Below are positions 1,872-48,139 of a stretch of 64,000 nt of DNA, one piece after another. Under the pieces are notes generated by a model. The model was not told the origin of the DNA, ran no database searches, and worked only from the letters and a program-made list of their open reading frames with translations. The translations under genes were made by a program, and so were the position numbers. The first letter of the stretch is position 1, and each line of letters opens with the position of its first letter. Source of the stretch: Nannocystis bainbridge (GTDB lineage: Bacteria; Myxococcota_A; Polyangia; Nannocystales; Nannocystaceae); assembly GCF_028368995.1 (NCBI RefSeq), contig NZ_JAQNDL010000001.1, positions 64,001-128,000 of the forward strand, in the 5' to 3' direction.

Positions 1872-1993
1872 GCATGTCCGTGCAGACATGTCCGCTCGCG
1901 CATGTCCCCTGCGACATGTCCCTGAGGTCCGGTTGCTGAGGCACGCCGCCCTCGCTCGCATGTCCTCCCGGACATGCTCGCCCGGTCATGTCC
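1871..1993. repeat. Array of 14-bp-phased TGTCC-N4-GGACA-type sites
   Basis: CATG cores at 1873,1887,1901,1915 and at 1959,1973,1987. Confidence 0.9.
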
Positions 1994-4155
1994 TCGGCGC
2001 CCTGCTCGCCGTGCTCGCCCTGCTCGCCCCCGCCCTCGCCCGCGCCGACGAGCTGCGGCTGTGGCACGCCTACCGCGACGCCGAGGCCACCGCCCTGGTC
2101 GAGATCGTCGAAGAATTCGCCGCCCGCACCGGCCACCGCGTCGAGCTGCTGGCGGTCGCCCACGAGAGCTTCGGCAGCAAGCTCGCCGCCACCATCCCGC
2201 GCGGCCAGGGCCCGCACGTCTTCATCGACTCGCACGAGCGGATCGGCGACTACCGGCTGCGCGCGCTGCTCGGCGACGCCGGGCCCGCGCTCGGGCCCGA
2301 CGCCGACTACAGCGCGCAGTCGCTGGCCGCCGTCACCCAGGACGGCGCGCGCTGGGGCGTCCCGCTGAACGCCAAGTCGGTCGCGCTGTTCGTCAACACC
2401 CGCCTCGCCGGCGCCGTCCCGGACACCCTCGAGGGTATCGCCGCCCTGCCCATGCCCGCGGGCGTCTACCCGCTGGCCTACGAGGCCCAGAGCGCCTACG
2501 GCCACATGCCGCTGCTGGCGGCCTTTGACGGCCGCATGCTCGCCGACGACGCCAGCTTCGGCTTCGTCGGCCCGGCCGCGGCCCGCTCGCTCGCGTTCGC
2601 CAGGGAGCTCGTCGAGCGCGGCGCCGTCCCGCGCGACGCCGACGGCGCCCTCGTGTCCGACCTGTTCCGCTCCGGCCGGGCCGCCTTCGCCATCAGCGGC
2701 CCGTGGCTGGTCGGTCAGCTCGCCGGCGTCGAGTTCGCCTGGCGCGTCGTGCCCCTGCCGATCGTCGGCGAGACCGGCCTGCCGATGCGCCCGCCGCTGA
2801 CCGTCGAGGCCGCCATGCTGTCGCCGCAGGGCTCCGCCTCGCCAGCCGCCCTCGACCTGGTCCGCGCGCTCGCCAGCGCCGAGGCGGCCGCGGTGCGCCA
2901 GCGGCTCGCCGGCACCCTGTCCGTCAGGACAGACGTACCTGTCCCCGAGGACAGCCCCGTGCTCGCCGGCTTCCGCGCCCAGGCCGAGCTCGCGGCGCCG
3001 ATGTCCGCCGACCCGGCCATGCGCTCGACCTGGGAGCCGGCCTTTCGCGCCATCCGCAAGGTCCTGCGCGGCCAGGCCAGCCCCGAAGACGCGCTCGCCG
3101 AGGCCGCCCGCCGCTTCGCCGACGTCCGCCGCCCACCGCCGCCCGCCGCCTCGCCGACGCCGGCCCTGCTGCTGCTCGGCCTCGGCCTGCTGCTCGTCGC
3201 CTTTCACCTGGTCCGCCGCGCCCGCGACCCCGCCGCCCGCCAGGCCCTGCGCGCCTCGCTGCCGGCCTACCGCTACGTCGCCCACAGCGTCGTCGTCGTC
3301 GGCCTGCTGGTGTTCCTCCCGCTGATCGTCGGCGCCGCCACCTCGCTGTTCGCCGGTCGCCCGGGCGAGGGCTACTACGTCGGCCTCGCCAACTTCTTCG
3401 AGATCCTCACCGCCCGCGGCGGCCCCTTGCTGGCCACCGGCTCGTTCTGGTTCGTCCTCCTCGTCACCTTCCTGTGGACGGCCGTCAACGTGGTCCTCCA
3501 CCTCGGCATCGGCCTCGCGCTCGGCCTCGTGCTGTCGCGCCCGACCCTGCGCCTGCGCGCGCTCTACCGCGTGCTCCTCATCCTCCCGTGGGCCGTGCCC
3601 AGCTACGTCACCGCCCTGGCGTGGAAGGGCATGTTCCACCAGCAGTACGGCGCCGTCACCGGCCTCGTGCTCGCCATCAACGAGTGGTTCGGCACCAGCC
3701 TCGAGCCGATCGCCTGGTTCTCGCGCTTCGCCACCGCCTTCGCCGCCAACGTCGCCACCAACGTGTGGCTCGGCTTCCCCTTCATGATGGTCGTCACGCT
3801 CGGCGCCCTCACGGCCGTGCCCGCCGACGTGCTCGAGGCCGCCGAGGTCGACGGCGCCAGCCGCTGGCAGCGCCTCACCCGCGTCACCCTGCCGATGATC
3901 CGCCCGGCCCTCGCCCCGGCCGTCACCCTCGGCGCGATCTGGACCTTCAACATGTTCAACGTCGTCTTCCTCGTCTCGGGCGGCGACCCCGACGGCTCGA
4001 CCGACATCCTCGTCAGCGAGGCGTACCGCTGGGCCTTCACCCGCGAGGCCCAGTACGGCTACGCCGCCGCCTACGCCGTCCTGATCTTCCTGCTCCTGCT
4101 CGTCACCACCCGCCTGCCGGCCTGGCTGGCGCGGCGACCGCGAGGCGCGCGATGA
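1960..4155 (+). CDS. Fused maltodextrin-type solute-binding protein + ABC permease (MalE-MalF-like)
   Basis: Signal peptide, LWHAY, SBP_bac-like body (GPHVFI, SGPW), then TM helices with ILPWAVP, WLGFPF and EAA loop EAAEVDGA; start chosen at ATG 1960 (ORF open from 1888). Confidence 0.88.
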   Translation: MSSRTCSPGHVLGALLAVLALLAPALARADELRLWHAYRDAEATALVEIVEEFAARTGHRVELLAVAHESFGSKLAATIPRGQGPHVFIDSHERIGDYRLRALLGDAGPALGPDADYSAQSLAAVTQDGARWGVPLNAKSVALFVNTRLAGAVPDTLEGIAALPMPAGVYPLAYEAQSAYGHMPLLAAFDGRMLADDASFGFVGPAAARSLAFARELVERGAVPRDADGALVSDLFRSGRAAFAISGPWLVGQLAGVEFAWRVVPLPIVGETGLPMRPPLTVEAAMLSPQGSASPAALDLVRALASAEAAAVRQRLAGTLSVRTDVPVPEDSPVLAGFRAQAELAAPMSADPAMRSTWEPAFRAIRKVLRGQASPEDALAEAARRFADVRRPPPPAASPTPALLLLGLGLLLVAFHLVRRARDPAARQALRASLPAYRYVAHSVVVVGLLVFLPLIVGAATSLFAGRPGEGYYVGLANFFEILTARGGPLLATGSFWFVLLVTFLWTAVNVVLHLGIGLALGLVLSRPTLRLRALYRVLLILPWAVPSYVTALAWKGMFHQQYGAVTGLVLAINEWFGTSLEPIAWFSRFATAFAANVATNVWLGFPFMMVVTLGALTAVPADVLEAAEVDGASRWQRLTRVTLPMIRPALAPAVTLGAIWTFNMFNVVFLVSGGDPDGSTDILVSEAYRWAFTREAQYGYAAAYAVLIFLLLLVTTRLPAWLARRPRGAR

Positions 4156-4162
4156 GCCCGAT

Positions 4163-4322
4163 CGGACATGTCCCTTCGGCCATGCCCTATCGGCCCTGTC
4201 CCCGCGGACATGCCCCATCGGCCATACGCTCGACACCCGCGCGCGCCGGCGCCAGCGGCTGGCATGTCCCATCCACCATGTCTTCCCGGCCATGCCCCCA
4301 CGGACATGCCCTGAACGACACG
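4163..4322. repeat. Two runs of 14-bp-phased palindromic sites
   Basis: Cores at 4167,4181,4195,4209,4223 and 4263,4277,4291,4305,4319; perfect TGTCCCCGCGGACA at 4197-4210. Confidence 0.9.
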
Positions 4323-4351
4323 CCTCACGCTCCCCCCCGCGAGGTGCGCCG

Positions 4352-5230
4352 ATGAGCCCCGCCGATCAGGGCCGCAAGGTCAGCCTCGCCGAGTCGATCG
4401 GCGCCCACCTGCTGCTCGTCGTCGCCGTCGCCTTCGCCCTCTACCCGCTGCTGTGGGTCGTCTCGCTGGCCTTCTCCGGCGCCGTCGAGCCGACCCCGCG
4501 GGTCTTGCCGGTCCCGATCGAGCCGACCCTCGAGCACCTGCGCGGCGTCGCCTTCTCGACCCTCCAGGTCCCCGGTGAGCCCGACCGGTGGTTGTTCGGC
4601 CTCCAGCTCGCCAACTCCATCGTCATCAGCCTCGCCACCGCCCTCGTCGGCGTCGTCATCGCCGTGCCGACCGCCTACGCCCTCGCCCGCTTCGAGTTCG
4701 TCGGCAAGAACGGCGGCATGCGGGCCCTGCTGGCCACGCAGATGTTCCCCGCCGTCGCCAGCGCCATCCCGCTCTATATCATCCTCGACGGCCTCGGCCT
4801 GCTCGGCACCCGCTCCGGCCTGGTCCTCTGCTACGCCACCACCGCCGTCCCGTTCGCCATCTTCCAGCTGCGCGGCGCCTTCGAGACCATCCCACGCGAC
4901 CTCGAGGAGGCCGCCATGGTCGACGGCGCCACCCGCTTCGAGGCCTTCCGCAAGGTCGTCCTGCCGGCCGCTCGCCCCGCGATCGCCGTCACCGCCCTGT
5001 TCGCCTTCATGAGCGCCTACAACGAGTTCGTGCTGGCCCACACCATGCTCGGCCGCGAGGAGATGTACACGGTCCCCGTGGTCCTGCAGCGCTACATCTC
5101 CGAGTTCAGCGCCGACTGGCCCAAGTTCGCCGCCGGCTCGCTGATCGTCTCGATCCCGGTGATGATCCTCTTCTACATCGCCCAGCGCCACCTCATCGCC
5201 GGCCTCACCGCCGGCGGCGTCAAGGGCTGA
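4352..5230 (+). CDS. Sugar ABC transporter permease (MalG-like)
   Basis: NSIVIS, AYALARF, QMFP, EEAAMVDGA, C-terminal GLTAGGVKG; GAGGTG upstream of ATG 4352. Confidence 0.94.
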   Translation: MSPADQGRKVSLAESIGAHLLLVVAVAFALYPLLWVVSLAFSGAVEPTPRVLPVPIEPTLEHLRGVAFSTLQVPGEPDRWLFGLQLANSIVISLATALVGVVIAVPTAYALARFEFVGKNGGMRALLATQMFPAVASAIPLYIILDGLGLLGTRSGLVLCYATTAVPFAIFQLRGAFETIPRDLEEAAMVDGATRFEAFRKVVLPAARPAIAVTALFAFMSAYNEFVLAHTMLGREEMYTVPVVLQRYISEFSADWPKFAAGSLIVSIPVMILFYIAQRHLIAGLTAGGVKG

Positions 5231-12420: not shown

Positions 12421-15072
12421 ATGATCGGACCCACGGAGCCTGGCGTGCGCAGCGGCTCGCGCCGAACCTCGCCAGCCGCGCCGCGGGCCGGCTGCTCGTG
12501 CGAGCTGCTGCTCTCGCTGTGCGCCGCCGACTCCGTCCAGGGCGTCCTCTCCGCGCACGGGCTCGACGTCGCCCGCCTGCGCGCCGTCGTCGACGAGCTC
12601 CACGCCGAGGTCGAGACCGAGCCGGCCGACTGGCGCCTGCGGATCACCCAGCGCGGCGGCCGCGCGGCCGATCCCGACCTCGATCTCCTGCTCGCCCTCG
12701 TCCGCTCCGCCGACTCCCACGCCTACCAGCTGCTCGAGCGCGCCGGCGCCGCCTGCGGCGCCCTGCGCAAGCTCCTGATCGACCGCCTGCGCGCGCTCGA
12801 GGCCGCCGCGCTCAATGGGACAGGTCCTTCGCGCCATGTCGGATCGGCCATGTCCTCCGAGACATCCGCCCCGCGGCGCCCCGTCGTCCAGCGCATGTCG
12901 ACCGCCCGGGCCGGCGAGCGCCCGGTCCGGCGCTCGCTCGCCGACGCCCGCCCTGCTGACCTGTCCCCGAGGACATCTCAGGCCGGCGACGCCCCGCGCC
13001 CGACCCGCGGCGGCGCCCGCACCTGGTCCGAAGACCAGGAGCGCGCCCGCCCCGTCCCCGCGCGCCCGACCGACGTCCGCACCTGGCCCGTCGACCACCC
13101 CGCGCGCGTCCGCCTCGACGCCAGCGACGGTTCGCCGGCGCGCGCTCGCCTCGAGCCTCGCACCTGGCCCGAAGACCAGCCCACGCGCGCCCGCCTCGAC
13201 GCCGCCGGCGACGGCCCGCGCGCCCGCACCTGGCCCGAAGACCAGCCCGAGGCCCGCCCCGCTCGCCGCACCGCACGCGAGCAGCCGCGCCTGCTGGCCC
13301 GCACCGATCCTCGCCCCGGACCCGCTACCGCCCTGTCCCCGCGGCCAGGTCCCAACGCCCAGGTCGCGACCGCCGTCGAGCCCGAGCCGCGCCTCGCTCC
13401 GGTGTCGCAGCCCGAGCCGCGCAACCACCGTCTGGCCCCGCTCGACCCGTCGGCCCTGCCGCCGCTGCACGGTCGCGAGGGCGAGCTGGCGCGCCTGGCC
13501 GACGCCGTCCTGCGCCGCTCGCCGCGCCCGCCGCTGCTCGTCGGCCCGCCCGGCAGCGGCCGCACCCTGGTCGCCAAGCACCTCGCCGGCCTGCTGCACC
13601 AGCCGGTCTTCTACCTGTCCGCGACCCGCTACGAAGACGAGGACGGCCTGCGCGCCGACCTCGCCGCCGTCGCCAAGCAGGGCGGCGTCGCCATCCTCGA
13701 CGACCTCGATCGGCTCGGCGGCGACGGCCCGCCGGCGCTGCTCGGCGCCCTCGCCAAGGCCTGGTCTTCGGGACAGCCGCCGATCGTCGCCGTCGCCTCG
13801 CCCGAGGGCCAGGCTCGCCTCGGCGCCTGGGCGCCCGGCCTGACCGCCGCGCTCGACCTCGTCACCCTCCAGCCGCTCGAGGGCGACGACCTGCGCGCCG
13901 CCGTGGCCGCCGCCGCGCCCGCGGTGCTGGCCCAGCATGGCCTGTCTCTCGGGTCAGGTGGCCGCCTGGCCGAGCTCGTGCGCCTGGCCGACCGCTTCCT
14001 CGCCGGCCTGGCTCAGCCCGGCCGCAGCCTCGACCTGCTCGACCTCGCCTGCGCCCGCACCGCCCGCGAGGGCCGCGGCAGCGTCCAGCGCGACACCTGG
14101 ATCGACATCGTCTGCGAGCGCAGCGGCGTCCCGCGCGAGCGCCTCGAGGGCCAGGGCCACCAGGACATGCTCGAGCTCGAGGCCGAGCTCGCGCGCAAGG
14201 TCGTCGGCCACGAGCACGCGCTGTCGGCCGTCGCCCAGCTGATCCGCAGGAACCGCGCCGGCTTCGGCTCGCAGCGCCCGATCGCCACCGTGCTGCTGCT
14301 CGGCCCCAGCGGCGTCGGCAAGACCGAGATCGCCAAGGCCCTGTGCGGGGCCCTGTTCGACCGCCCCGACGCGTTCGTCCGCCTCGACATGAGCGAGTAC
14401 GCCGAGGCCCACGCGGTCGCGCGCATCGTCGGCGCCCCGCCCGGCTACGTCGGCCACGAGCAGGGCGGCGCGCTGACCGACCCGCTGCTCAAGCAGCCGC
14501 ACTGCGTGGTCCTGCTCGACGAGATCGAGAAGGCCCACCGCGACGTCCACCAGCTGCTGCTGCAGGTGTTCGACGAGGGCCGCCTCACCGACGGCCGCGG
14601 CCGCACCATCGATTTCCGCCACGCCGCGATCCTCATGACCTCGAACCTCGGCGCCGGCTGCCTCGACGCCACCGGCGACGCCCGGCTCGACGAGGCCCGC
14701 GTGCTCGAGGCCGCCCGCGCCGCCTTCCCGGTCGAGCTGTGGAACCGCATCGAGGCCCCGCTGGTGCTCCACCCGCTCGGCGAGGCCCACCTCTCCCGGA
14801 TCTGCGCCCGCCTGGTCCGCGCCTCCTCCGACCGCCTGCTGCGCGAGCGCGGCATCCGCTACCGCCTCACCGACGCCGCCACCCGCCACGTCGTCGGCCT
14901 GTGCGGAACGGACATGTCCCTTGGGGCACGTCCCTTGCGACATGTCCTTACGCGCAGCGTCGAGGCCCTGCTCGCCGACGCGATCCTGCGCGGCCAGATC
15001 CGCGCCGGCATGCAGGTCGAGGTCGACCTCGATCACGCCGGCGCGCTGATGCTCCTGGCCTCGCGCGCCTAG
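12421..15072 (+). CDS. Clp/Hsp100 AAA+ ATPase (ClpA/ClpC-like) with degenerate first NBD and a low-complexity insert
   Basis: NBD2 GPSGVGKT, RLDMSEY, GAPPGYVG, LLDEIEKAH, MTSNLG, GARPLR; NBD1 GPPGSGRT; start uncertain. Confidence 0.85.
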   Translation: MIGPTEPGVRSGSRRTSPAAPRAGCSCELLLSLCAADSVQGVLSAHGLDVARLRAVVDELHAEVETEPADWRLRITQRGGRAADPDLDLLLALVRSADSHAYQLLERAGAACGALRKLLIDRLRALEAAALNGTGPSRHVGSAMSSETSAPRRPVVQRMSTARAGERPVRRSLADARPADLSPRTSQAGDAPRPTRGGARTWSEDQERARPVPARPTDVRTWPVDHPARVRLDASDGSPARARLEPRTWPEDQPTRARLDAAGDGPRARTWPEDQPEARPARRTAREQPRLLARTDPRPGPATALSPRPGPNAQVATAVEPEPRLAPVSQPEPRNHRLAPLDPSALPPLHGREGELARLADAVLRRSPRPPLLVGPPGSGRTLVAKHLAGLLHQPVFYLSATRYEDEDGLRADLAAVAKQGGVAILDDLDRLGGDGPPALLGALAKAWSSGQPPIVAVASPEGQARLGAWAPGLTAALDLVTLQPLEGDDLRAAVAAAAPAVLAQHGLSLGSGGRLAELVRLADRFLAGLAQPGRSLDLLDLACARTAREGRGSVQRDTWIDIVCERSGVPRERLEGQGHQDMLELEAELARKVVGHEHALSAVAQLIRRNRAGFGSQRPIATVLLLGPSGVGKTEIAKALCGALFDRPDAFVRLDMSEYAEAHAVARIVGAPPGYVGHEQGGALTDPLLKQPHCVVLLDEIEKAHRDVHQLLLQVFDEGRLTDGRGRTIDFRHAAILMTSNLGAGCLDATGDARLDEARVLEAARAAFPVELWNRIEAPLVLHPLGEAHLSRICARLVRASSDRLLRERGIRYRLTDAATRHVVGLCGTDMSLGARPLRHVLTRSVEALLADAILRGQIRAGMQVEVDLDHAGALMLLASRA
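13018..13250 (+). repeat. Intragenic repeat encoding RTWPEDQP-like units x4
   Basis: CGCACCTGG(T/C)CCG at 13018, 13078, 13159, 13225. Confidence 0.8.
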
Positions 15073-15510
15073 TCGAAGACCTGCGCTCGTCTGCGCCGCT
15101 CGCCGACCCGAGGGCCGGCGCGTGCACGCGGTTCGCCGGGCCCTGCGCCGCGAGCTGCCGCCCTCCGGCGTCTCGCGCTGCAATCGCCCGCGACGGCGAC
15201 ACCCGGGCGATCCCGGCCCTCGTCGACGCCGACGCCCGCGCGCCCGTGGCCTTCGCAGCTCGCAGCCAGCTTCCGCCAGCGTGCGCGCTTGCATGCGCGC
15301 GTCCTGTCTCGACCCCTTCCACGGTCCTCGCCGCGCTCGCGGCTCGCCTGCTCGCCTGCGCGTGAAGCCCCGCGAGCGCTCGCGGTGACCGCGCGAAGAC
15401 GCCGCCGAAGCCACCGCCACGGACCCCCGCGACCCCCCGTGAAACGTCGTTGTGCGGGCTGCCAGCGACCGGCCCGTGGCCCCTGGTAGAAGCGAGCAAG
15501 GCCGGATATT

Positions 15511-17280
15511 TTGGCCCACGTGCACTCAGCGCTCATCATCGACGCGGACGGCAAGACCCCGGCCACCCTCAAGAACATCCTGGCCCCCTACGGCTTCGAG
15601 TTCACGATCACGGAGAACGGGCCCGAAGCTGTCAACGTCGCGCGCCAGGCCGCGCCGGACATCATCTTTTTGCGCGCCGAGCTGCCGCTGACCTCCGGCT
15701 TCTCGGTGTGCAACCGCCTGCGGCGCCACGAGGACACCAAGCGCATCCCGCTCATCATGTACTCCTCGAACGTCAGCGAGGACGTGTTCGAGCAGCACCG
15801 CAACCTCAAGACCCACGCCGACGACTACCTGCGCCTGCCGCTCGACGAGGGCCGCCTGATCTCGGCCATCCGCCCGGTCCTCCCGATCGGCGAGGCCAAG
15901 GCCGAGGCCGCCCCCGCGCACCCCGGCCGCGACGGCGCGAACCCACCCCAGGCGGCCGCCAGGCCGGCCCGCTCGGGGCGCCCGAAAGAGCGCCTCGACA
16001 TCGAGCTGCGCGACGCCCCCGCGCGCGGCGAGGCCCGCCAGGCCTTCGAGCAGGAGTTCCAGGACGGCTTCAACGCCCTCCAGGACGAGCCCTCGTCGGC
16101 CATCCCGCGCGAGGGCTCCGGCGCCGTCCCGCCGCCCGACGGCGAGATGTCCGACGCCACCGCCGTGGGCGGCTTCAAGGCCCAGCGCGAGGTGCTCCAG
16201 CTCAAGAGCCAGCTCAACGCGCGCAGCCGCGAGATCCTCACGCTGCGCGACGAGGTCGACTCGCGCGAGCGCAACCTCGGCGACGCCAAAAAGCTCCAGC
16301 GCGAGCTGCAGGCCCAGATCGGCGAGCTCGAGAACCAGGTCCTCGCCGCCCAGGAGCAGATCCTGTCGTCGCGCGAGAACATCGAGGCCGCGGTGCGCGA
16401 CAAGCAGACCGCGCTCAAGCGCGAGGAGGGCGTCAAGACCCGGCTCGAGGTCACGCAGAAGAAGCTCAAGGAGACCGAGACCGAGTTCGCGGCCTTCCGC
16501 GCCCAGACCGCCCAGGACCGCGACAAGGCCGCCATCGCCCTCGCCGAGGCCCAGCAGCGGCTCGAGATGCAGACCGGCATGCTCACCGAGCTCGAGGCCG
16601 AGCGCGAGCGCCTGACCTCTCAGCTCCTCGAGTCCAACGGTCAGGTCTCGACCCTCGTCGACGGCTTCGAGAGCGCGCGCAAGAGCGTCGCCGGGCTCGA
16701 GACGCAGATGGAGCACCACCGCCAGGAGATGGAGCGCGCGCTCGCCGACGCCGAGACCGAGCGGGTCGCCTCGCTCGAGTCGCTGGCGCGCCAGCACCAG
16801 GGCGAGATCGACGAGCGCGACCAAGAACACCGCGGCGCCCTCGAGCAGCTCCACGCCCAGATCAACAGCCTGCGCGAGCAGGGCCAGCAGGAGCGCGAGC
16901 GCATGTCGCAGGCGCTGATGGAGACCGAGGAGAACGCCCGCCTGCAGGTCAGCCAGCTGACGCAGACGCTGTCGGCCACCGAGGAGGCGGCGCGGCGAGA
17001 GATCCAGAGCCTGCAGTACACCCTCGCGCAGGCCGAGGAGACCACCCGCGGCGAGCTCGCGTCGCTGCAGGCCGCGCTGTCCGACAGCCGCGTCCAGGCC
17101 GAGGACGCCGCCGCCGACCACGCCCGACGCGTCGCCGGCCTCGAGCACCAGGTCGACGAGCTCGGCGCCCAGCTCGACCGCGCCGAGACCCTGCTCGCCC
17201 GCCGCCGCGACGCCGCCCAGCGCGCCCAGCAGGCCCTCGCCGTCGGCCTCAAGTTGCTCGAAGACGACGATCAGACATGA
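15511..17280 (+). CDS. Pseudo-receiver domain + long coiled coil, AglZ/FrzS-like motility-associated protein
   Basis: Receiver fold with PDIIFLRAELP (Arg at the phospho-Asp position), SGFSVC, QHR...ADDYL; heptad-rich C-terminus. Confidence 0.75.
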   Translation: MAHVHSALIIDADGKTPATLKNILAPYGFEFTITENGPEAVNVARQAAPDIIFLRAELPLTSGFSVCNRLRRHEDTKRIPLIMYSSNVSEDVFEQHRNLKTHADDYLRLPLDEGRLISAIRPVLPIGEAKAEAAPAHPGRDGANPPQAAARPARSGRPKERLDIELRDAPARGEARQAFEQEFQDGFNALQDEPSSAIPREGSGAVPPPDGEMSDATAVGGFKAQREVLQLKSQLNARSREILTLRDEVDSRERNLGDAKKLQRELQAQIGELENQVLAAQEQILSSRENIEAAVRDKQTALKREEGVKTRLEVTQKKLKETETEFAAFRAQTAQDRDKAAIALAEAQQRLEMQTGMLTELEAERERLTSQLLESNGQVSTLVDGFESARKSVAGLETQMEHHRQEMERALADAETERVASLESLARQHQGEIDERDQEHRGALEQLHAQINSLREQGQQERERMSQALMETEENARLQVSQLTQTLSATEEAARREIQSLQYTLAQAEETTRGELASLQAALSDSRVQAEDAAADHARRVAGLEHQVDELGAQLDRAETLLARRRDAAQRAQQALAVGLKLLEDDDQT

Positions 17281-19143: not shown

Positions 19144-20172
19144 ATGCCCGCGACCGAGCTCACCTACGGCCTCGCCGCCCTGCTCGGCGCCCTCCAGGGC
19201 GTCGCCGAGTTCCTGCCGATCTCGTCGTCCGGCCACCTCTCGCTGGCCCAGCGGGTCGCCGGCCTCGACGCGTCCGCCGGCGGCCACTCGTTCAACATCG
19301 TCGTCCACGCCGGCACCCTGCTGGCCGTCCTCCTCCACTACCGCGCCGACCTGCTGGCGATCGCCCGCGGCGTCCTGCGTCCTGGACATGTCCCCGAGGA
19401 CATGCCCAAAACGCCAGGTGCTTCCGGACATGCCCCGAAGGACAGGCTTCCCGGGACCGCTCCTCCGGACGGTCACGACCCACGCGTCGCGGCCCCCCAT
19501 GGCCCTCCGGAGAGCCCCACCGCGCACGGAGCTAGCGACCGCGGCGGCGCCTCTGCACCTGTCCCGGAGGACAGCCTGGGCCGCGCCAGCTCGGGCAGCG
19601 CGCCGACCGACGCCCGCGCCCTGCTGCTGGCGCTCGTGCTCGGCACCTTGCCGCTCGCGGCCGCCCTCGCCCCGCCGGTCGAGGGCCTCGTCATCGCCGC
19701 CGAGCTCCAGCCGAAGATCATCGGCGCCTGCTTCCTCGTCACCGCGGCCATGCTCGCGTTCGCCGAGTGGCGGACCCGCCGGCAGCCGTGGCCGCAGCAG
19801 GTCCCGCGCCCGCTGCAGGCGCTGCTCATCGGCCTCGCCCAGCTCGTCGCCATCCTGCCGGGCATCTCGCGCAGCGGCTCGACGATCGCCGCCGCCATGG
19901 CGCTCGGGCTCGGCCGCCTGCCCGCGGCCCGGTTCTCGTTCCTGCTGGCGATCCCCGCCATCCTCGGCGCCTCGCTCAAGGAGGCCCTCGACCTCATGCG
20001 CGACGGCCTGCCGAGCGCCGACCCGGTCGCGTTCGCCATCGGCTTCGTCGTCAGCTTCGTGGTCGGCGTCGCCACCCTGCGCGTGCTGCTGGTCCTGCTG
20101 GTCCGCGTCGGCGTGATGCCGTTCGTGCCCTACCTGGTCATCCTCGGCCTCGGCGTCCTCATCCTCGGCTGA
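19144..20172 (+). CDS. uppP: Undecaprenyl-diphosphate phosphatase with an unusual ~80-aa hydrophilic insertion
   Basis: QGVAEFLPISSSGHL, PGISRSGSTI, ARFSFLLAIPAILGA. Confidence 0.93.
   Translation: MPATELTYGLAALLGALQGVAEFLPISSSGHLSLAQRVAGLDASAGGHSFNIVVHAGTLLAVLLHYRADLLAIARGVLRPGHVPEDMPKTPGASGHAPKDRLPGTAPPDGHDPRVAAPHGPPESPTAHGASDRGGASAPVPEDSLGRASSGSAPTDARALLLALVLGTLPLAAALAPPVEGLVIAAELQPKIIGACFLVTAAMLAFAEWRTRRQPWPQQVPRPLQALLIGLAQLVAILPGISRSGSTIAAAMALGLGRLPAARFSFLLAIPAILGASLKEALDLMRDGLPSADPVAFAIGFVVSFVVGVATLRVLLVLLVRVGVMPFVPYLVILGLGVLILG
19384..19446. repeat. 14-bp-phased array inside the uppP insertion
   Basis: Cores at 19387,19401,19415,19429,19443; another perfect site at 19560-19573. Confidence 0.9.
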
Positions 20173-20305: not shown

Positions 20306-21010
20306 ATGCTGCGCCGACTCGTCCTCTGCTCGCCCTTCCTGTTCGCCTGCGCCCCGAAGCTGCCGTCGGAGACCGACGGCGAGCCCACCTCGACCTCGGA
20401 CGGCGACGGCGCCACGAGCACTTCGGGTCCCGCACCGACCTCCGAATCCACCACGAGCACCTCGGGTCCCGCGCCGACGACGGGCATCACCACGGAGCCA
20501 GCGAGCACCACCGACGCCAGCTCCGGGACCACCGGAGCGCCGGAGGCGGAGCTGCGGATCTTCCCGGTCGAGCTGCGGCCCAGCCAGGCGAGCGGGCTCG
20601 ATGGCCTCGAGTGGTGGAAACCCGACCCGTCCGCTGAATGGTGCGACCCCGAACCGTGCCGCGGCGTCCCCACTCTGGGCGAGCCGCGGTGGCTCGTCGA
20701 CGGCGCCTTCGCCGAACCCGAAGCCATCGTGATCGGCAGCCGCGTCGCCGTCCTCGTCCCCTACCAGCACCCCGGCTGCGCGCTCGCGTGCGGGATGCAG
20801 ACGACCGAGGTGACCGACGAGATCGAGGGCGGCGGAGGCATCGGCAACCTGCCCGCCGACCTGCCCTGCGGCACCGCGGCGAGCGGCGTGTGGCTGGCGC
20901 TCGACTTCGGCCTCATCGTTCGCGGCGGCATGCACCGCGCCGCGCTCCGGATCGAGGACCGCTGCGCCGTCGGCACCGAGTTCTGGTCGGCGACCTTCGA
21001 GCCCGGATGA
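20306..21010 (+). CDS. Hypothetical lipoprotein with Thr/Ser-rich linker and Cys-containing domain
   Basis: LFAC lipobox, T/S/P-rich linker typical of myxobacterial lipoproteins. Confidence 0.65.
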   Translation: MLRRLVLCSPFLFACAPKLPSETDGEPTSTSDGDGATSTSGPAPTSESTTSTSGPAPTTGITTEPASTTDASSGTTGAPEAELRIFPVELRPSQASGLDGLEWWKPDPSAEWCDPEPCRGVPTLGEPRWLVDGAFAEPEAIVIGSRVAVLVPYQHPGCALACGMQTTEVTDEIEGGGGIGNLPADLPCGTAASGVWLALDFGLIVRGGMHRAALRIEDRCAVGTEFWSATFEPG

Positions 21011-21098
21011 ACATGCCCGAATGACATGCCCGCATGGACATGTCCTATCACACATGCGCTTCAGAGCATGCCCAGAGGGACATGCCCGATCGGGCATC
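21010..21098. repeat. 14-bp-phased array at a convergent gene junction
   Basis: Cores at 21012,21025,21039,21053,21067,21081,21095. Confidence 0.92.
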
Positions 21099-21119: not shown

Positions 21120-22157
21120 CTACGCGCCCGCGCGCGTCAGCAGCATGCAGTCGCCGTACGAGTAGAAGCGGTAGCCGGCGGCGACCGCCTCGGCGTAGGC
21201 CGCCAGCACCCGCTCGCGGCCGCCGAGGCAGCACACCAGCATCAACAGCGAGCTGCGCGGCAGGTGGAAGTTGGTGACGATCGCGTCGACCACCTTGAAC
21301 TCGAAGCCCGGCGCGATCACCAGATCGGTCGCCCCGGAGAACGGCGCCACCGTCCCGCCGCCGGCGCGGGCCACCGCCTCGAGCGCGCGCGTGGCCGTGG
21401 TCCCGACGGCGACGACCGGGCGGCCCTCGGCCTTGGCCGCGGCGATCCGGCTCGCCGCCGCCGCGTCGACCTCGACCCGCTCGGCGCCGACCCGGTGCTC
21501 GCGCACGTCCTCGGCCTCGAGCGGCAAGAACGTGCCCGGCCCGACGTGCAGCGTCACGCGCACGACGTCGAGCTGCTCCAGCACCTCGGGCTCCCAGTGC
21601 AGGCCGGCCGTCGGCGCCGCGACCGAGCCCGGCTGCGCGGCGTAGATCGTCTGATAGCGGCTGGCATCGTCGCTCGTCGGCCCCTCGGGCCGGCGGATGT
21701 ACGGCGGCAGCGGCACCTCGCCGCGGCTCTGCAGCGCGCCCATCCACTCGCCGGTCTCGACCGCGAACACCCGCGCCCGCGGGTCGACGACGTCGGGCTC
21801 GACGTAGCGGGCGACCCACTCGCCGCACTGCACGACGTCGCCGGGCCGTAGCCGCCGGGCCCCGCGGACCCACGCGCAGAACGTCTGGCCCGGCCCGAGC
21901 CCCGGCCGCGGGTCGCACACCAGCAGCTCCAGCTCGCGGCTGCCATGCATCACCCGCAGCCGCGCGGGCACCACCCGCGAGTCGTTGACGACCACGAGCG
22001 CCCGCGGATCGAGGAAGCGCGGCAGCTCACGCGCGTGGGCGTGGACCGGCGGCCCCGCGTCGCGCTGCACCAGCAAGCGGGCGTCGCCGCGCCGGGCCGG
22101 GGGCGTCTGGGCGATCTGCTCCGGCGGCAGCACGTAGTCGTAGGCTTCAGGACCCAT
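21120..22157 (-). CDS. queA: S-adenosylmethionine:tRNA ribosyltransferase-isomerase
   Basis: IAQTP, NDSRVVPARL, PLPPYIRR, YQT, GSVAAPTAGLH, TLHVGPGTF, TNFHLPRS, YRFYSYGD. Confidence 0.97.
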   Translation of the reverse strand: MGPEAYDYVLPPEQIAQTPPARRGDARLLVQRDAGPPVHAHARELPRFLDPRALVVVNDSRVVPARLRVMHGSRELELLVCDPRPGLGPGQTFCAWVRGARRLRPGDVVQCGEWVARYVEPDVVDPRARVFAVETGEWMGALQSRGEVPLPPYIRRPEGPTSDDASRYQTIYAAQPGSVAAPTAGLHWEPEVLEQLDVVRVTLHVGPGTFLPLEAEDVREHRVGAERVEVDAAAASRIAAAKAEGRPVVAVGTTATRALEAVARAGGGTVAPFSGATDLVIAPGFEFKVVDAIVTNFHLPRSSLLMLVCCLGGRERVLAAYAEAVAAGYRFYSYGDCMLLTRAGA

Positions 22158-22224
22158 GAAGACGCGCGGGTTTTGGCACACCCGCGCCGCCGCGCACAAG
22201 TGGCCCGGGCCGCGGCGACGGTCC

Positions 22225-23601
22225 ATGCTCGCGGCAGTGCCCCGCCACACGCTCGTCGCCGCCGCCTCCCTGGCCCTGCTCGCCCTGGCGCCCGCGCCCG
22301 CCCGCGGCGGCGAGTCGAGCGCCGAGATCCTGCACCGCCGCGGGGTGCACTGCATGGAGGAGATCGAGCGCCGCGACTGCGCGATCGAGCACTTCGAGGC
22401 GCTGCTCGAGGAGCGCACCGATCGCCGCGAGCTCGTCACCGACGGCCTGCTGCGCCTGGTCAAGCTGTACGAGAAGGAGGACCGCCCCGAGGACCTCAAG
22501 GCCGCGCTGCGCCGCTTCTGGGACGCCGGCAAGACCGACAGCCGCCGCGGCCACCTGCCCTACACCGCCCGCTTCCTGCCCAAGGACTTCGACGTCCTGT
22601 TCCACGCCCACATCGGGCGCCTCGTGGCCTCGCCGCTGGCCAAGCAGCTCGACGAGATCGCCGAGTTCGTCATGACCTGCGACCCGCACGTGCGCGGCCA
22701 GCTCGACGACCTGCGGATCCTCCGCAAGGCCCAGCGCAAGTCCAGAGAGACAGGTGTGCCTGTCCAAAAGGCCATGTCGGACGTCGTCGCCGAGGAGAAG
22801 AAGCGCAGCGAGGCTTACAAGAAGCGGCGCGCCCAGGCCGAGGCGGAGGGCCGACCGCGCCGCCACGAGCCGGTGTTCGCCGACGCCACTTGCCAGGTCG
22901 CGCGGGCCCTCGGCGACGACACCGTGGCGGCCTGGACCCGCGGCGCGTTCGCCCTCGCGCACGGCGATTTCCGCCGCTCCGCCGCGATCCTCGAGATCCC
23001 CGACCTCGCCGCCAAGCTGGCCGCCGCGACCGCCGCCGGGCGACTGGTCGTCCGTGGCGACGGCATCTGGGCGCTCACCCCGCTGCGCTACCAGGGCGGC
23101 GAGGTGCTGCTGCGCGTGCTCGACACCGGCGAGCTGGTGGTCGCGCCGCCGGCGGTGATGACGGAGATCGCCGCCAACTTCGCCCGCGGCAAGCGCACGC
23201 TGCCCCGCGAGGTCGACCGCCTCGTCGTCGGCACGCCGGTCGACGCCGGCTTCTTCGCCGTCGCCACCGAGGCCGCGGTCCAGGAGCTCGGCTTCGGCAA
23301 CATGTCGAAGGGCCGCCGCGGCCTGCTCCAGCTGCTCCTCCCGCGCCCCGAGGGCCTGCAGATGGCCGGCGTCGCCCACGAGTACTTCGGCTTCTTCCTC
23401 CGCATGCCGACCGACACGCCGCTCAAGGCCGGCGCGCTGGTCGACGTGGTCCAGCGGATGATCGCCAACCAGGCCGAGGCCGACTCCGACAGCGCCGAAT
23501 TCCTGCGCCTGCTCGACGTGACTCAAGCCACGGACAAGCGCGCGCTGCTCCTGTCCTACGTCCTCTCGCGCCGGCAGATCGAGACGATCGTGCTGCGCTG
23601 A
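22225..23601 (+). CDS. Hypothetical secreted protein with TPR-like N-terminal helices
   Basis: Signal peptide, strong GC3 bias, head of a three-gene operon; no family recognised. Confidence 0.7.
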   Translation: MLAAVPRHTLVAAASLALLALAPAPARGGESSAEILHRRGVHCMEEIERRDCAIEHFEALLEERTDRRELVTDGLLRLVKLYEKEDRPEDLKAALRRFWDAGKTDSRRGHLPYTARFLPKDFDVLFHAHIGRLVASPLAKQLDEIAEFVMTCDPHVRGQLDDLRILRKAQRKSRETGVPVQKAMSDVVAEEKKRSEAYKKRRAQAEAEGRPRRHEPVFADATCQVARALGDDTVAAWTRGAFALAHGDFRRSAAILEIPDLAAKLAAATAAGRLVVRGDGIWALTPLRYQGGEVLLRVLDTGELVVAPPAVMTEIAANFARGKRTLPREVDRLVVGTPVDAGFFAVATEAAVQELGFGNMSKGRRGLLQLLLPRPEGLQMAGVAHEYFGFFLRMPTDTPLKAGALVDVVQRMIANQAEADSDSAEFLRLLDVTQATDKRALLLSYVLSRRQIETIVLR

Positions 23602-23611: not shown

Positions 23612-25321
23612 GTGGCAGTCTTGTCCCCCGTGGCGACCCCCCTGTCCGCCGTCCCGCTCCTCGCCTGGCTCGCGCTCGCCGGCGTGGCACCTGGCGGTTC
23701 GAGCATGTCCTCCAGCGCAGGTCCGATCGGCCAGGTGCGTTCGGACATGTCCGAACGGCCAGCCCTGATCGCCCTCGCGCCGGCCCGCGGCGGCAAACCG
23801 AAGACCCCGGCGCCCGCACCGGCGCCCGAGCCGACCCTGGCCCCGCCGACCTACGGCCCCGAGCAGGCCGCCGCCGACATCGAGGTGGTGCTGACCGGCC
23901 GCGGCAAGGACTACCTGCAGGCGCGCGCGCGCCTCGAGCAGCACGCCGATGTCGCCGCGCCGCGGGTCACCGCGCGCCTGGCCGCCACGCCGGCGCCGAC
24001 GATGCCGGAGCAGCGCCGCCTGCTCGCGCTGCTCGGCGGCATCGCCCGGCCCGAGGACATCCCGCTGTTCGCCGACGCGATGCGCCGCGAGGTCGCGGCC
24101 GCGGTCAAGCAGTCGCAGGAGCAAGGCGTCGAGCTGCCGGCGGCCGAGCCGTGGCGCGAGATCTTGCGCGCGCAGGGCCCCGCGGCCGCGCCGGCGCTGA
24201 CGGGGCTGGTGGCCGAGAAGACCTTCAGCGAGGAGCTGCGCGGCCTCTTGCTCGCCGACCTCGTCGCCGTCACCCCGGCCGACAAGCTGCCCGAGTTGGT
24301 CGCGCTGGTCGGCCTCGGCGCGCCGAGCCTGCGCGCCGCGCTGCGCCAGGCGATCGTCCGCCGCGCCCACTCCTCGCCGGCCGAGCGCGCGCAGCTGATC
24401 CAGGTCGTCGACGCCGCGCTCGCCGCTCGCGAGCCCGCGCGCCTGCCCGGCCTCGTGCTGCTGCGCGCCGCGCTCGGCGGCGCCGGCGACACCGCCTTCA
24501 CCACCCGCGCCGCCGCCCTCGCCGAGGACACAGCCGGCGAGTTTGCCACCCGCGTCGCCGCCATCCGCGTGCTCGTCGCTCGCCGCAGCGACCCCGCCAC
24601 CCAGACCGTGCTCGCGCGCCTCGCCGAGCAGCACCTGCCGGCCGACCAGCGGACCGCCCTGCGCAGCGAGATCCTCGGCAGCCTCGCCCTCGCCGGCCTC
24701 GATGCCACCCGCGCCGCCGCCGTCGTCGACCGCCTGCAGCTCATGAGCGCCGCGGCCCCGCGCCTCGCCACCACCGCCTTCGCCGTCGCCGCGCTGCCGC
24801 CCAGCGGCGCCTGGCTCGAAGTCGGCCAGCGCCACGCCTGGCCCGAGGTCCGCGCCGCCGCGCTCGCCCGCGTCGAGGCGCCGTGCTCGACGGCGATCCT
24901 CCGCCGCCTGCGCGACGGCACCGTCACCCGCGGCGACACCTTCGAGCCCGACGCCGCGGTCGCGCGCGAGGTCCTGGTCGCGCTCGGTCGCTGCGGCGGG
25001 CCCGACGCCTTCGCCGCGCTGCAGGCCGTGGTCGTCGACGCCGAACAGAACGTCGACCGCCGGGCCGAGGCCGCGCGTCAGCTCGTCGACCGCCACGGCT
25101 CCGCCGGCGCCGACGTCGTCGCCGCGGTGCTGCGCAGCTCCGACGACCTCGGGGTCGCGCTCCGCCTCGTGCGCGCGCTGCAGCGGCTGGAGGGCCCCGC
25201 CAGCGACGACGTGCGCCAGGCCCTGTGCGCCGCCGGCAAGCGCCAGGAGCTGGCCACCAGCGCCCAGCGGGCCGTTCGCGGCCTGTTCCCCGACCTCGAC
25301 GATCCCTGCGCGGGCGGCTGA
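23612..25321 (+). CDS. HEAT-repeat-like helical protein, probably secreted
   Basis: Ala/Leu-rich helical repeats (WPEVRAAALA, RRAEAARQL); hydrophobic N-terminus; start uncertain. Confidence 0.65.
   Translation: MAVLSPVATPLSAVPLLAWLALAGVAPGGSSMSSSAGPIGQVRSDMSERPALIALAPARGGKPKTPAPAPAPEPTLAPPTYGPEQAAADIEVVLTGRGKDYLQARARLEQHADVAAPRVTARLAATPAPTMPEQRRLLALLGGIARPEDIPLFADAMRREVAAAVKQSQEQGVELPAAEPWREILRAQGPAAAPALTGLVAEKTFSEELRGLLLADLVAVTPADKLPELVALVGLGAPSLRAALRQAIVRRAHSSPAERAQLIQVVDAALAAREPARLPGLVLLRAALGGAGDTAFTTRAAALAEDTAGEFATRVAAIRVLVARRSDPATQTVLARLAEQHLPADQRTALRSEILGSLALAGLDATRAAAVVDRLQLMSAAAPRLATTAFAVAALPPSGAWLEVGQRHAWPEVRAAALARVEAPCSTAILRRLRDGTVTRGDTFEPDAAVAREVLVALGRCGGPDAFAALQAVVVDAEQNVDRRAEAARQLVDRHGSAGADVVAAVLRSSDDLGVALRLVRALQRLEGPASDDVRQALCAAGKRQELATSAQRAVRGLFPDLDDPCAGG
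23688..23763. repeat. 14-bp-phased array within the N-terminal coding region
   Basis: Cores at 23690,23704,23718,23732,23746,23760. Confidence 0.85.
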
Positions 25322-28060: not shown

Positions 28061-28166
28061 GGCCATGACCGTGAGGTCATGGCCCTTCGTTCATGTCCGT
28101 TCAGACAGGCTCAAAGGGCCATGACCGCGAGGCCATGGCCCTTTCTACATGTCCATTCGGACAGGG
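28061..28166. repeat. Longest 14-bp-phased array (8 cores), filling a convergent intergenic gap
   Basis: Cores at 28064,28078,28092,28106,28120,28134,28148,28162. Confidence 0.95.
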
Positions 28167-28171: not shown

Positions 28172-28822
28172 TCAGGAGCGCGAGCCGGTGCGCACGTGGG
28201 CGCGGCGCCCGGGCACGTCGGCGCGCTGCATCGGCGCGGGCGGCAGCTCGAGCCGCGGGTCGACCGGCCCCTGGCGGCGCAGCACCGAGAGCGAGACCTC
28301 GTCGAACTCGTCGTCCGCGTCCTCCACCTCGAGGTCCTCGCGCGCGGTGAAGCGGCGGCGGAGGATCGGCGCCTCGTCGGTCTCCTCGACCTCGTCGGCC
28401 AGCTCGTCCTCGTCGACCTCGTCGAGCTCGGTCGGATCGACGCTCGGCGGCTGCAGCTCGAGCTGCGCCGGGCTGGCGCGCCGCTTGCGAGCCGCGGGCG
28501 CCGACTTGCCGGTCGGCGTGTTGAGGCTGGCGCGCAGCTCGACGCCGGGGCGGAAGTCGATCGTGAACGCCGCGTCGATCGTCATCGGCTCGAGCGTCCG
28601 CGGGTTGACGCCCTTGCGAGCCGAGCGCTTCTTCTTGGTGAAGGTGCCGAAGCCCGGGAACGTGAAGCGCGGGCTCTGAGCCCGCGTGACCCTCGCCTTG
28701 ACGAAGTAGGCGGACAGCTCCCCGAACGCGATCTCGAGGATCTGTTGCACGCACTTCTTCGTGATATCGGGCGGCAGCTCCCGATTGCGTGCGATTTTTT
28801 CGATGAGTTCAGCCTTCGTCAT
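28172..28822 (-). CDS. HU/IHF family DNA-binding protein with acidic C-terminal extension
   Basis: MTKAELIEKIA, FPGFGTF, ARKGVNPRT, FRPGVELR. Confidence 0.93.
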   Translation of the reverse strand: MTKAELIEKIARNRELPPDITKKCVQQILEIAFGELSAYFVKARVTRAQSPRFTFPGFGTFTKKKRSARKGVNPRTLEPMTIDAAFTIDFRPGVELRASLNTPTGKSAPAARKRRASPAQLELQPPSVDPTELDEVDEDELADEVEETDEAPILRRRFTAREDLEVEDADDEFDEVSLSVLRRQGPVDPRLELPPAPMQRADVPGRRAHVRTGSRS

Positions 28823-29024: not shown

Positions 29025-30518
29025 TCAACTTCGCAGCACGCGCAGCGCTCGCTCGAGGTCCGACATCACCGTGTCGTCGGCCGGGTTTCGTTGACCCGGC
29101 GGGAGTTCACCCTCGCGGCGGATCACGTACGATGGATGATACGTGACGTGAAGTGGGATCTGCAGGCCCGCACCGGCGTCGTCGTAGGTAAAACGACGGT
29201 TGCGCATCTGTGCCAACTTCAGATCCTGATCGGCGCCGAGCAGCAACATCCCCGCATACCTGCCGAGCGCCACGATGACGTCGGGGCGGATCGCCCGCAC
29301 CTGGGCGCGCAGGAACGGCGAACACCGCTCGATCTCCTCAGCGGCCGGCTCGCGGTTGCCAGGCGGCCGGCACTTGAGCACGTTGGCGATGTAGACCTGC
29401 TCGCGCTTCATGCCGAGGCGCTCGATCCACTGGGTGAGCCGCCGGCCCGCCGCGCCGACGAACGGCTCGCCGCGCCGATCCTCGTCCGCGCCGGGCGCCT
29501 CGCCGACGAACATCACGCGGGCGTTGGGGTCGCCGACCCCGAATACGATGTTCGTGCGGGTCTTGGCGAGCTTGCAGCGGGTGCAGTCACCGACGTTGCG
29601 GGTCCGCAGATACTCGAGCTTCTGCGCCGGCGTCCACGCCTGAGCCTGCGCGCGCAGCCCCGCGTCGGCCGCTCGCGGCGGACCCTCGCTCTCGGCCGCG
29701 CGCGGCGGCCCTGAGGGATCCGCCAGCGGCAGACTCGCGCTGCGCGGTCGCGCCGGCGGCTCCGAAGGCGCACGCGAAGACGGCGCGCTCGCGGGCCGCT
29801 GCGGCTCGCCTGATCGATCCGCGAACGGTGGGCTCGCGGGCCGCTGCGGTTCGCGCGAACGATCCGCGAACGGCGGGCTCGCGGGCCGCTGCGGCTCGCG
29901 CGATCGATCCGCGGGCGGAGGGCTCGCGGGCCGCTGTGGCTCGCGCGATCGATCCGCGGGCGGAGGGCTCGCGGGCCGCTGCGCCGGCGGCGGTGCCGAT
30001 CGAGGCGGTGTCACCTCGTCCTCCCAGTCGTTCGGCGGCGGCTCGTCGTCCGACGAGTGCGACTCGCGGCCTGCGACGAGGAACGTCTCGTCTCGCATCG
30101 GCGCGCGACCGGGCGATCCGGTCTCTCGCGCCGGCGATGGCGACGCGCGACCGGGCGCGGCCGCAAGCGGCGGGCTCTCTCGCGTCGGTGCGCGGCCGGG
30201 GTTTGCGAAGCCCTCTCGGCTCGGTGCGCTGGCGGCTCCTGCATCGCGCTGCGGCGGACTCGACGGCTCGTGAGATCCGCGCGGTGCGGATCCGGCCTGG
30301 CCTTCGGGCCATGTCGGTGCGCCCGCGCTCGCGGATCGATCCTCGGTCACCTGTCCGGACGGCCAGGTAGGATCCGCGCGCGGACCCGGCTCGGGCGTGC
30401 GGCGTGGAGACGCCGCGGCCGACACGTACGCCAAGCCCCGGAACTCCCGGAGGTGGCGCAGGTGCGCGGCGAACTGGACCGCCAGTCTTCGCCTCGCGTC
30501 GTGTCGATCGCCCTCCAC
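29025..30518 (-). CDS. Uracil-DNA glycosylase family 4 with long Pro-rich N-terminal linker
   Basis: [39 protein letters not shown]. Confidence 0.93.
29787..29982. repeat. 45-bp intragenic tandem repeat (~4.3 units; QRPASPP(P/F)ADRSREP)
   Basis: GCTCGCGGGCCGCTG at 29787,29832,29877,29922,29967. Confidence 0.92.

Positions 30519-31837: not shown

Positions 31838-31845
<8 letters not shown>
30532..31845 (-). CDS. coaBC: Bifunctional phosphopantothenoylcysteine decarboxylase/synthetase
   Basis: GGIAAYK, HIELADW, APATA, PAMNTNMW, LACG..G.GRM, SAGPT...IDPVRF, GFAA. Confidence 0.96.
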
Positions 31846-32998
<1,153 letters not shown>

Positions 32999-33740: not shown

Positions 33741-33835
33741 GCGGGGGTTATGGCACAGATCACCGGCCGGTGCGACGGCCCGCGGCGCCCGCCGCAGGCA
33801 TCAGCACGCGCGTCTCGTGAGGTCCGCCGCGGGCG

Positions 33836-45980: not shown

Positions 45981-46057
45981 CGGCTGACCTCGCGGGCATG
46001 TCCGCTCGGACATGCCCGTTCGGGCCTGTCCTTCAGCGCATGTCCTCGGGGACATGC
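45981..46057. repeat. 14-bp-phased array at a convergent junction
   Basis: Cores at 45997,46011,46025,46039,46053; perfect sites at 45999 and 46041. Confidence 0.92.
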
Positions 46058-46315
46058 TTGTCCGCGCGAACGAGCGGATGGGGCGCGGGCCGTCCGGGCT
46101 GACTCGCCGTGGCGCGCGCCCTGCGTGGCAGCCGGCACCAGGCGCGTCCTGTGTGGCAGCCGGCACCGGGCCCGCCACGAGCGCTCGCTGCGAGCGCCAC
46201 CATCTCCCCACGTGCCGCTCCGAGCGCTCGCCGCTCCGCATCGCGCCCTGCCCTGCCCGCCTCTCCCCCGCGGAGCGCTCGCTCCCCGGCGAGGTGACCG
46301 CGAGAGCGGCCGCTT

Positions 46316-46378: not shown

Positions 46379-48139
<1,761 letters not shown>

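Follow-up and report, generated by a model that had tools for sequence, protein, structure and literature searches.

How can the codons of a conserved ATPase motif also spell out a periodic DNA palindrome, and by what route did such an overlay come about? The question is raised by a 64,000-nucleotide stretch of the Nannocystis bainbridge genome (positions 64,001 to 128,000 of contig NZ_JAQNDL010000001.1; hereafter the window, whose own numbering is used throughout), where the codons for DMSLGARPLRHVL in domain 2 of a ClpB-like AAA+ gene are overlain by a three-unit array, referred to here as the clp array. The gene (P0001; 12421-15072, plus strand; 883 aa) was defined from its open reading frame (ORF), Pfam matches and an alignment to ClpB. 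The block 14905-14952, GGA ACG GAC ATG TCC CTT GGG GCA CGT CCC TTG CGA CAT GTC CTT ACG, is in frame with this ORF and is read G T D M S L G A R P L R H V L T; within it the codons GGG GCA CGT CCC TTG CGA (14923-14940, plus strand) give G A R P L R, the 'GAR' motif of Clp/Hsp100 domain 2. The array occupies 42 bp (14910-14951) as three 14-bp units without assigned strand, each made of a 10-bp palindrome (GGACATGTCC) and a 4-nt spacer, and its cores lie at 14913 (CATGTCCCTT), 14927 (CACGTCCCTT) and 14941 (CATGTCCTTA). A pattern search confirmed these positions, which the original prediction had named, and the codon string that it gave over GARPLR matches the sequence exactly. Unit 1 (14910-14923; GGACATGTCC plus CTTG, 17.4 bits) has the in-frame reading (T)DMSL(G); unit 2 (14924-14937; GGGCACGTCC plus CTTG, 7.7 bits) is one base off the consensus in its core, at the base that preserves Arg (CGT, not TGT); and unit 3 (14938-14951; CGACATGTCC plus TTAC, 16.8 bits) reads RHVL(T). 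Because 14 bp is not a multiple of three, each core falls in a different reading frame, giving DMS, ARP and RHV. Many of the codons in the block are rare in genomic usage, namely GGA (0.027), CTT (0.013, used twice), GCA (0.020), CGT (0.037), TTG (0.060), CGA (0.037) and CAT (0.098). Tandem Repeats Finder independently reported 14911-14947 with a period of 14, 2.6 copies and a score of 53, and the window has 27 matches to CAYGTCCYTT at no more than one mismatch, against an expected 6.48 from 100 shuffles (standard deviation 2.57, maximum 14).

The clp array is a member of a large repeat family. In the genome of 11.05 Mb (71.5% GC) GGACATGTCC has 956 copies against about 9 predicted by our own arithmetic from base composition only. 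Successive cores are spaced by 14 bp 946 times, by 28 bp 286 times and by 42 bp 139 times, as against 13 bp twice and 15 bp once, and CATG-N10-CATG occurs 3736 times compared with 72 for N9 and 262 for N11. A 14-position matrix, built solely from intergenic units with phased neighbours on both sides (1702 middle units), describes a 10-bp palindrome whose central CATG is 93-94% conserved per position and whose outer positions are 50-75% conserved; the 4-nt spacer is 55-64% A/T at its central two positions and otherwise free. With this matrix 2479 arrays of 2-17 units were scored genome-wide against 3 in a reversed-genome control, and the window contains 18 family arrays against 0-1 in each of ten shuffles. 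The clp array belongs to this family by its summed score of 41.9 bits (17.4 + 7.7 + 16.8), by having at least two units in exact 14-bp register, and by its A/T-rich 4-nt spacers (CTTG, CTTG, TTAC); being intragenic, 119 nt upstream of the stop codon, it departs from the typical but not obligatory location past a stop. The family is largely restricted to Nannocystis: the pair CATGTCC-N7-CATGTCC was found in all 10 other same-genus genomes (278-414 copies in five large ones, 3-75 in five that are smaller or fragmented), but among 30 genomes of other genera only in one (5 hits), with 0 in the remaining 29. Its copies are mostly unique, with 1649 distinct sequences among 1670 three-unit segments and 10 repeated sequences located at contig ends; the excess of identical spacers side by side (75 of 1670 against 18.6 expected) points to a little duplication of units. 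The open-access literature that was searched contained no account of the motif, nor of repeats like these in Nannocystis or myxobacteria. The longest array has 17 units and lies outside the window (C3:1237913-1238178), beginning 25 nt past a stop; long arrays keep ACATG but show decay at the outer core positions.

The protein under the array is an ordinary member of its class at the site concerned. Its Pfam matches are AAA_2 (residues 619-778, E 1.4e-51) followed by ClpB_D2-small (786-868, E 2.7e-13), the order expected of a ClpB-like protein, and domain 2 aligns to residues 570-850 of E. coli ClpB in a structure match (E 2.6e-73) with intact GVGKT and DEIEKA. In this alignment GARPLRH stands opposite GARPLKR of E. 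coli ClpB, inside the ClpB_D2-small envelope, so that the GAR(P)(L/M) motif is found where it should be, at the start of D2-small. The closest public orthologues, all Nannocystis records, are 86-90% identical; GARPLR is invariant in all orthologues examined, and its Arg is invariant in the rows with LGARP context. We take GARPLR to be the Clp 'sensor-2' motif, whose Arg presumably has a catalytic role. The clp peptide thus carries no protein-level difference from the Clp/Hsp100 GAR motif, and the codons alone differ. Domain 1, as a separate observation, has a Walker A of GSGRT, with Arg replacing Lys, and may be inactive.

The codon choice is far from what this peptide would be given by default. 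Of 100,000 synonymous recodings sampled according to codon usage in the genome, none reached 41.9 bits (mean score 7.1 bits, standard deviation 5.0, maximum 34.4), while the maximum attainable for the array peptide is 47.8 bits and the core positions are at their optimum. Five other genes in the genome that encode GARP[LMI][RKA] do so with GC-rich codons and score -18.2 to -41.4 bits in the same register.

The origin of the clp array was then read from orthologues, taken from 40 relatives and public records, in which the same 16 codons were compared in 95 rows. The results showed no indel within the 16-codon block in any row, and the same length in the 5 syntenic relatives; the assertion in the original prediction that an insertion cannot explain the array is borne out here. 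Eleven rows, representing six genomes of which five are present twice, score 40.7-41.9 bits. Two rows, G004 and an identical public record, score 12.1 bits, with unit 3 alone contributing (15.1). The remaining 82 rows score from -43.3 to +1.4 bits; among these, 34 rows (30 distinct sequences), from the sister subclade and other genera, encode the identical LGARPLRH with GC-rich codons and score -31.7 to +1.4 bits, whereas relatives lacking the motif would have used the array's own codons had the prediction been wrong. Against the four Nannocystis genomes of the sister subclade the peptide LGARPLRHVLT is identical, while its codons differ at 10, 11, 11 and 11 of 11 positions, and every one of these differences is silent, lies in the direction of the motif and is a third-position change or one within the Leu or Arg codon family. 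Changes of residue are limited to the variable positions after Asp (A/T and A/T/S to M and S) and to the residue before Asp. Since TGT would change the conserved Arg to Cys, the middle core keeps CACG, a form seen in only 4 of 1702 intergenic middle units, the family otherwise having CATG. The silent codon changes and the Arg-preserving CACG agree with the further claim that the array arose by point substitutions under a dual constraint. In a maximum-likelihood (ML) tree of the C-terminal 295 residues, Nannocystis (support 96/95) is divided into the array-less subclade (100/98) and a clade of G004 with the six array-bearing species (95/91), to which G004 is sister. The position of G004 in this tree, together with its possession of unit 3 alone, makes it probable that unit 3 preceded units 1 and 2; the alternative, that G004 lost two units, is less economical. 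This intermediate genome suggests a stepwise build-up. The first and second codon positions of the ancestral sequence already resembled the array.

Once present, the array was kept. In the five syntenic relatives, an unchanged codon was counted wherever the residue is the same, and codons ending in A or T are retained in the array in 33 of 35 comparisons (7/7, 7/7, 7/7, 5/7 and 7/7 by genome) compared with 1057 of 2292 (46%) in 31 other genes of the window; codons ending in G or C are kept at 88.7% elsewhere in the window and in 31 of 35 cases in the array. N. punicea still scores 41.9 bits in spite of four silent changes within the block, and in contigs of four metagenome runs spanning the array the only positions at variance with the window are 14907, 14909 and 14934, all outside the central CATG or CACG. 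A force acting on the DNA sequence can therefore override codon preference even on a conserved ATPase motif, and, judged from these comparisons of sequence, the clp array was very probably built in place by substitutions and maintained.

What that force is can be proposed with less assurance. We suggest that what it would read is the sequence of the DNA, and not the structure of an RNA or the copying history, because sequence is conserved and complementarity is not, the register is exact, the spacers are free and the copies are unique. The putative reader would be a sequence-specific, probably dimeric and oligomerising DNA-binding protein, for which the three units (42 bp) would present four helical turns; the normal sites of the family would be those at gene ends, and the clp copy would be a coding-embedded binding platform kept by selection for binding. 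That the array was built in place, maintained and read by a putative DNA-binding protein is the best explanation overall, and we put it at about an even chance. The mechanism of a sequence-specific DNA reader, taken by itself, is tentative and falls somewhat short of that. A broader version, in which Nannocystis marks gene ends and some intragenic sites with a periodic DNA code read by an oligomerising protein or by an uptake or repair machine, is possible but doubtful.

Most of the arrays lie outside genes: 1586 of the 2479 are intergenic, 364 touch a gene end and 529 are inside genes, 305 of these 529 with coding signal on both sides; 64% of arrays (1586/2479) thereby fall in about 18% of the genome. 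Their density is highest in convergent gaps (1.80/kb), followed by tandem (0.59/kb) and divergent gaps (0.26/kb), and is far lower in coding sequence. Within tandem gaps the median distance of an array is 50 nt (quartile 15 nt) from the stop that precedes it and 210 nt from the start that follows, and most of the longest ones begin within about 25 nt of a stop (2-25 nt). Several points weigh against a DNA-binding reader. The gene calls behind these figures are crude, being made from GC content at third codon positions (GC3) with 81.6% of the genome called coding. The six array-bearing species are close kin, so that the conservation counts are not independent. The reader itself is putative and has no candidate protein. 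Arrays inside genes are spread evenly along them with no 3' bias, and the triplets that encode the cores are enriched in all three frames genome-wide, in a manner resembling uptake-sequence drive; this placement pattern is also expected of a neutral or selfish motif that accumulates where it is tolerated, without local function. Finally, the positions that would be hairpin partners covary weakly (Cramer's V 0.10-0.115 against 0.04-0.075 in controls), and together with the proximity to stops (median 50 nt) and an excess of G and T on the sense strand at the outer core positions this covariation points towards a role at the RNA level.

Candidate readers and functions were sought from several sides. 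The genes flanking the longest arrays are diverse and gave no reader candidate. No RNA run of the strain was found; of 24 listed runs, all in the form of contigs, 20 contain part of the window, and the 4 recorded as RNA contain shares of 0.07-0.08. A lead towards methylation of CATG proved uninformative, since 34 of 41 relatives (25 of 31 genera) have a D12-class methyltransferase (PF02086) and its presence does not track the motif, and a replichore bias like that of the FtsK-orienting polar sequences (KOPS) was likewise set aside, the imbalance of forward and reverse half-cores following GC skew only.

The alternative that survives best is a molecular drive without local function, either an uptake or recombination bias like that behind the uptake signal sequences (USS) of Pasteurellaceae and the DNA uptake sequences (DUS) of Neisseriaceae or a biased repair toward a phased consensus; protein selection would then merely veto harmful steps, and GARPLRHV would have happened to be a near match. 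We consider this unlikely on balance, yet a serious contender. It accounts for the enrichment of cores in all three frames, by which the tripeptides GHV, DMS and TCP are largely encoded by the core (GHV as GGA CAT GTC in 152 of 736 cases against 1.1 expected, DMS by the core in 274 of 461 against 56.9 expected), for the even spread of coding arrays and for a density that tracks tolerance from convergent through tandem and divergent gaps to coding sequence, and arrays that are unique rather than copied also agree with it. Homologues of ComEC and DprA are present as well, but they match in 10-11 of 14 control genomes and are therefore not discriminating. To our knowledge, neither competence nor an uptake bias has been reported for Nannocystis. 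The family is like USS and DUS in having a motif of about 10 bp that is about 100-fold over-represented and lineage-restricted, in the inflation of GHV, DMS and TCP, and in that the clp copy came from substitutions; Findlay and Redfield (PMC2817400) likewise describe the accommodation of uptake sequences by coding regions, where these arise by point mutation, inflate the encoded tripeptides and lie mostly on poorly conserved residues. The clp copy, in contrast, overlies a highly conserved motif, the palindrome of the core is perfect, and the arrays are concentrated past stops, 64% of them in the small intergenic share of the genome. Known uptake sequences are moreover single dispersed motifs, and not strict 14-bp phased arrays of 2-17 units as found here. 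Ectopic gene conversion, for its part, should homogenise spacers, and the spacers are not shared.

An RNA element is the next alternative, and an improbable one. Paired units would serve as hairpins for 3'-end protection, in the manner of repetitive extragenic palindromic (REP) sequences, or for termination or pausing, and the clp copy would act on clp mRNA about 120 nt before the stop. Neighbouring units are indeed able to pair as a 10-bp stem with a 4-nt loop, Watson-Crick pairs between them number 5433 against the 5038 expected from independence (8% above), and the covariation of hairpin partners is slightly above that of controls. In arrays up to 150 nt past stops the outer core on the sense strand has G 6694 times against C 6138 and T 3628 times against A 3040, an excess that the spacers do not share and that could reflect tolerance of G-U pairs in RNA. 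The short distance of arrays past stops, the start of the longest ones 2-25 nt past them and the high density between convergent genes would also suit such a role, as would the folding of the clp array itself at -21.8 kcal/mol (z -2.9). However, the GC-rich orthologue folds at -30.8 kcal/mol (z -1.3), so that the ancestral sequence was at least as stable, pairing beyond the consensus is weak, and it is the sequence that is conserved rather than complementarity. Even numbers of units are not preferred, and arrays inside genes do not cluster near stops. A scan of 14500-15700 gave 0 terminator-like sites and no promoter; a GC-rich hairpin with a U-tract, as in an intrinsic terminator, is absent, spacers and flanks having no T run, and no Rfam family was matched at the gathering threshold in the window. 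A terminator placed 40 codons before the stop would, in addition, give a non-stop mRNA.

Very improbable is the insertion of a mobile element, or a replacement or gene conversion from another array, that was later repaired by selection. Its appeal comes from other members of the family, which do involve indels. A second three-unit array in the ClpB-like gene (12818-12859, no strand) lies in the N-terminal linker at residues 133-146. In alignment with G008 and five other genera it appears as about 15 inserted codons, and it has the same length in the 5 relatives. The array in a MiaB-like gene adds four codons relative to same-genus orthologues, and that in an aspartokinase-homoserine dehydrogenase (AK-HSD) lies in an indel-rich loop; both were rejected as repeats of the clp pattern, being in indel-prone linkers. 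Two arrays of 3 + 4 units (4164-4315, no strand), directly past the stop of gene 1990-4155, form a segment that G010 and G005 lack, their flanking genes overlapping by ATGA, and that, where present, is part of about 200 bp (4156-4366) flanked by duplicated GCGATGAG; the duplication looks like a target duplication or a repeat permitting precise loss. The argument against a mobile-element origin for which the original prediction took this array as its strongest case consequently stands for the clp copy and does not extend to the family as a whole, of which the linker, MiaB-like and 4164-4315 arrays show indels. At the clp site itself there is no indel in orthologues, neither the length gain nor the target duplication expected of a miniature inverted-repeat transposable element (MITE) or other insertion element, and 11 of 14 residues are unchanged. 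As to conversion, 20-mers from each half of the clp array recur at other loci, but these 20-nt words are the longest shared in this genome and no other locus has the whole 42 bp; full conversion would pass through Arg-to-Cys at the conserved GAR arginine, and the G004 intermediate has unit 3 only. A transposase of the Y1 type is also lacking, with 0 matches to PF01797 (Y1_Tnp/RAYT) in this genome (90.5% complete), compared with matches in 6 of 14 known genomes in a control search.

This last result also led us to reject a hypothesis of REP elements mobilised by REP-associated tyrosine transposases (RAYT). REP sequences, bacterial interspersed mosaic elements (BIME) and REPINs (background in PMC3116915 and PMC3337134) resemble the Nannocystis family as high-copy, lineage-specific, hairpin-capable palindromes that are mostly extragenic, at gene 3' ends or between convergent genes, the clp copy excepted. 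They differ in that the Nannocystis genome has no RAYT and no populations of identical copies (1649/1670 unique), in that its 14-bp units form direct phased arrays instead of imperfect hairpins of about 35 bp in inverted pairs, and in that some of its copies were built by substitution inside genes. The family-wide evidence, with no RAYT gene and unique copies, fits a non-replicative origin, and the family lacks defining features of both uptake sequences and REP/REPIN elements. Least of all, and with a probability that we regard as negligible, unusual codons would resemble the motif by chance, for although the ancestral peptide is partly compatible with the array-encoded one (DxxLGARPLRHV and DMSxGTCPxGHV), none of the 100,000 recodings reached the observed score (z about 7), the paralogues and the 34 same-peptide orthologue rows score at most 1.4 bits, and the array is retained in six species.

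Regulatory protein-binding sites can be embedded in coding sequence, and such overlapping, or dual, codes are the setting in which the clp array, if read by a DNA-binding protein, would belong. As in such codes, synonymous positions are fixed by a non-protein constraint and rare codons are conserved; unlike them, the clp element is one of about 2,500 in a family with periodic architecture. The array is a clean case of dual coding, in which silent non-protein information lies over a conserved motif with a living intermediate and a quantitative null at hand, and it brings to light a large repeat family, nearly confined to Nannocystis, with about 2,500 phased arrays in each genome. Were the reading as a periodic code true, myxobacteria would possess a new system for genome organisation or self-recognition, with a pressure that recodes eleven consecutive codons into rare ones and holds them across species. 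The reader of the motif could reveal a new system of nucleoid organisation, termination or DNA recognition in bacteria that are mined for natural products. On the practical side, the arrays may break short-read assemblies, as suggested by the lower counts in fragmented same-genus genomes, and their runs of rare codons could mislead gene finders and codon-based predictions of expression.

The other arrays of the window, to none of which a strand is assigned, show the usual placement of the family. Two arrays of 4 + 3 units (1870-1997) run from the stop codon of gene 798-1871; a 3-unit array (19384-19439) is downstream of the stop at 19063, and another (23701-23756) begins 100 nt past the stop of gene 22225-23601. 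Convergent genes enclose a 5-unit array at 21022-21091, between 20543-21010 (plus strand) and 21120-22541 (minus strand), and a 2-unit array at 59046-59073, between 57709-59034 (plus) and 59084-60721 (minus). Beside minus-strand genes are the 7-unit array 28061-28158 (3' end of gene 28172-28780), the 2-unit array 31802-31829 (in a 50-nt gap past the stop of gene 31838-32983), the 2-unit array 33037-33064 (last codons of gene 33006-33758), the 2-unit array 54556-54583 (stop of gene 54565-55089), the 3-unit array 56793-56834 (stop of gene 56829-57563) and the 6-unit array 61466-61549 (past the stop of gene 61590-62546). Gene 42434-45976 has arrays at both ends, with 3 units (42332-42387) in the divergent gap upstream of it and 5 units (45994-46063) directly past its stop. 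In syntenic gaps the positions of arrays are mostly conserved, with variation in the number of units and in length. Outside the window, an M16-like peptidase has a 3-unit array (C3:588028-588069) over its HxxEH zinc motif (HLLEHMLFK), and an array at C3:1285020 adjoins a CxxCH haem motif; both are candidates for further arrays built on conserved motifs.

A few other features of the window were recorded in passing. The N-terminal linker of the ClpB-like protein (12800-13400, residues ~130-330) is unalignable with the orthologues of G008 and five other genera and contains RTWPEDQP repeats whose copy number varies among species. Four tandem paralogues of about 1.7 kb on the minus strand (46300-54300; 67-69% GC) have internal Cys-rich repeats with periods of 96 and 201 and cross-match one another in all five syntenic relatives, and a 45-bp tandem repeat at 29787-29983 (4.4 copies, 92% matches) is unrelated to the 14-bp family.

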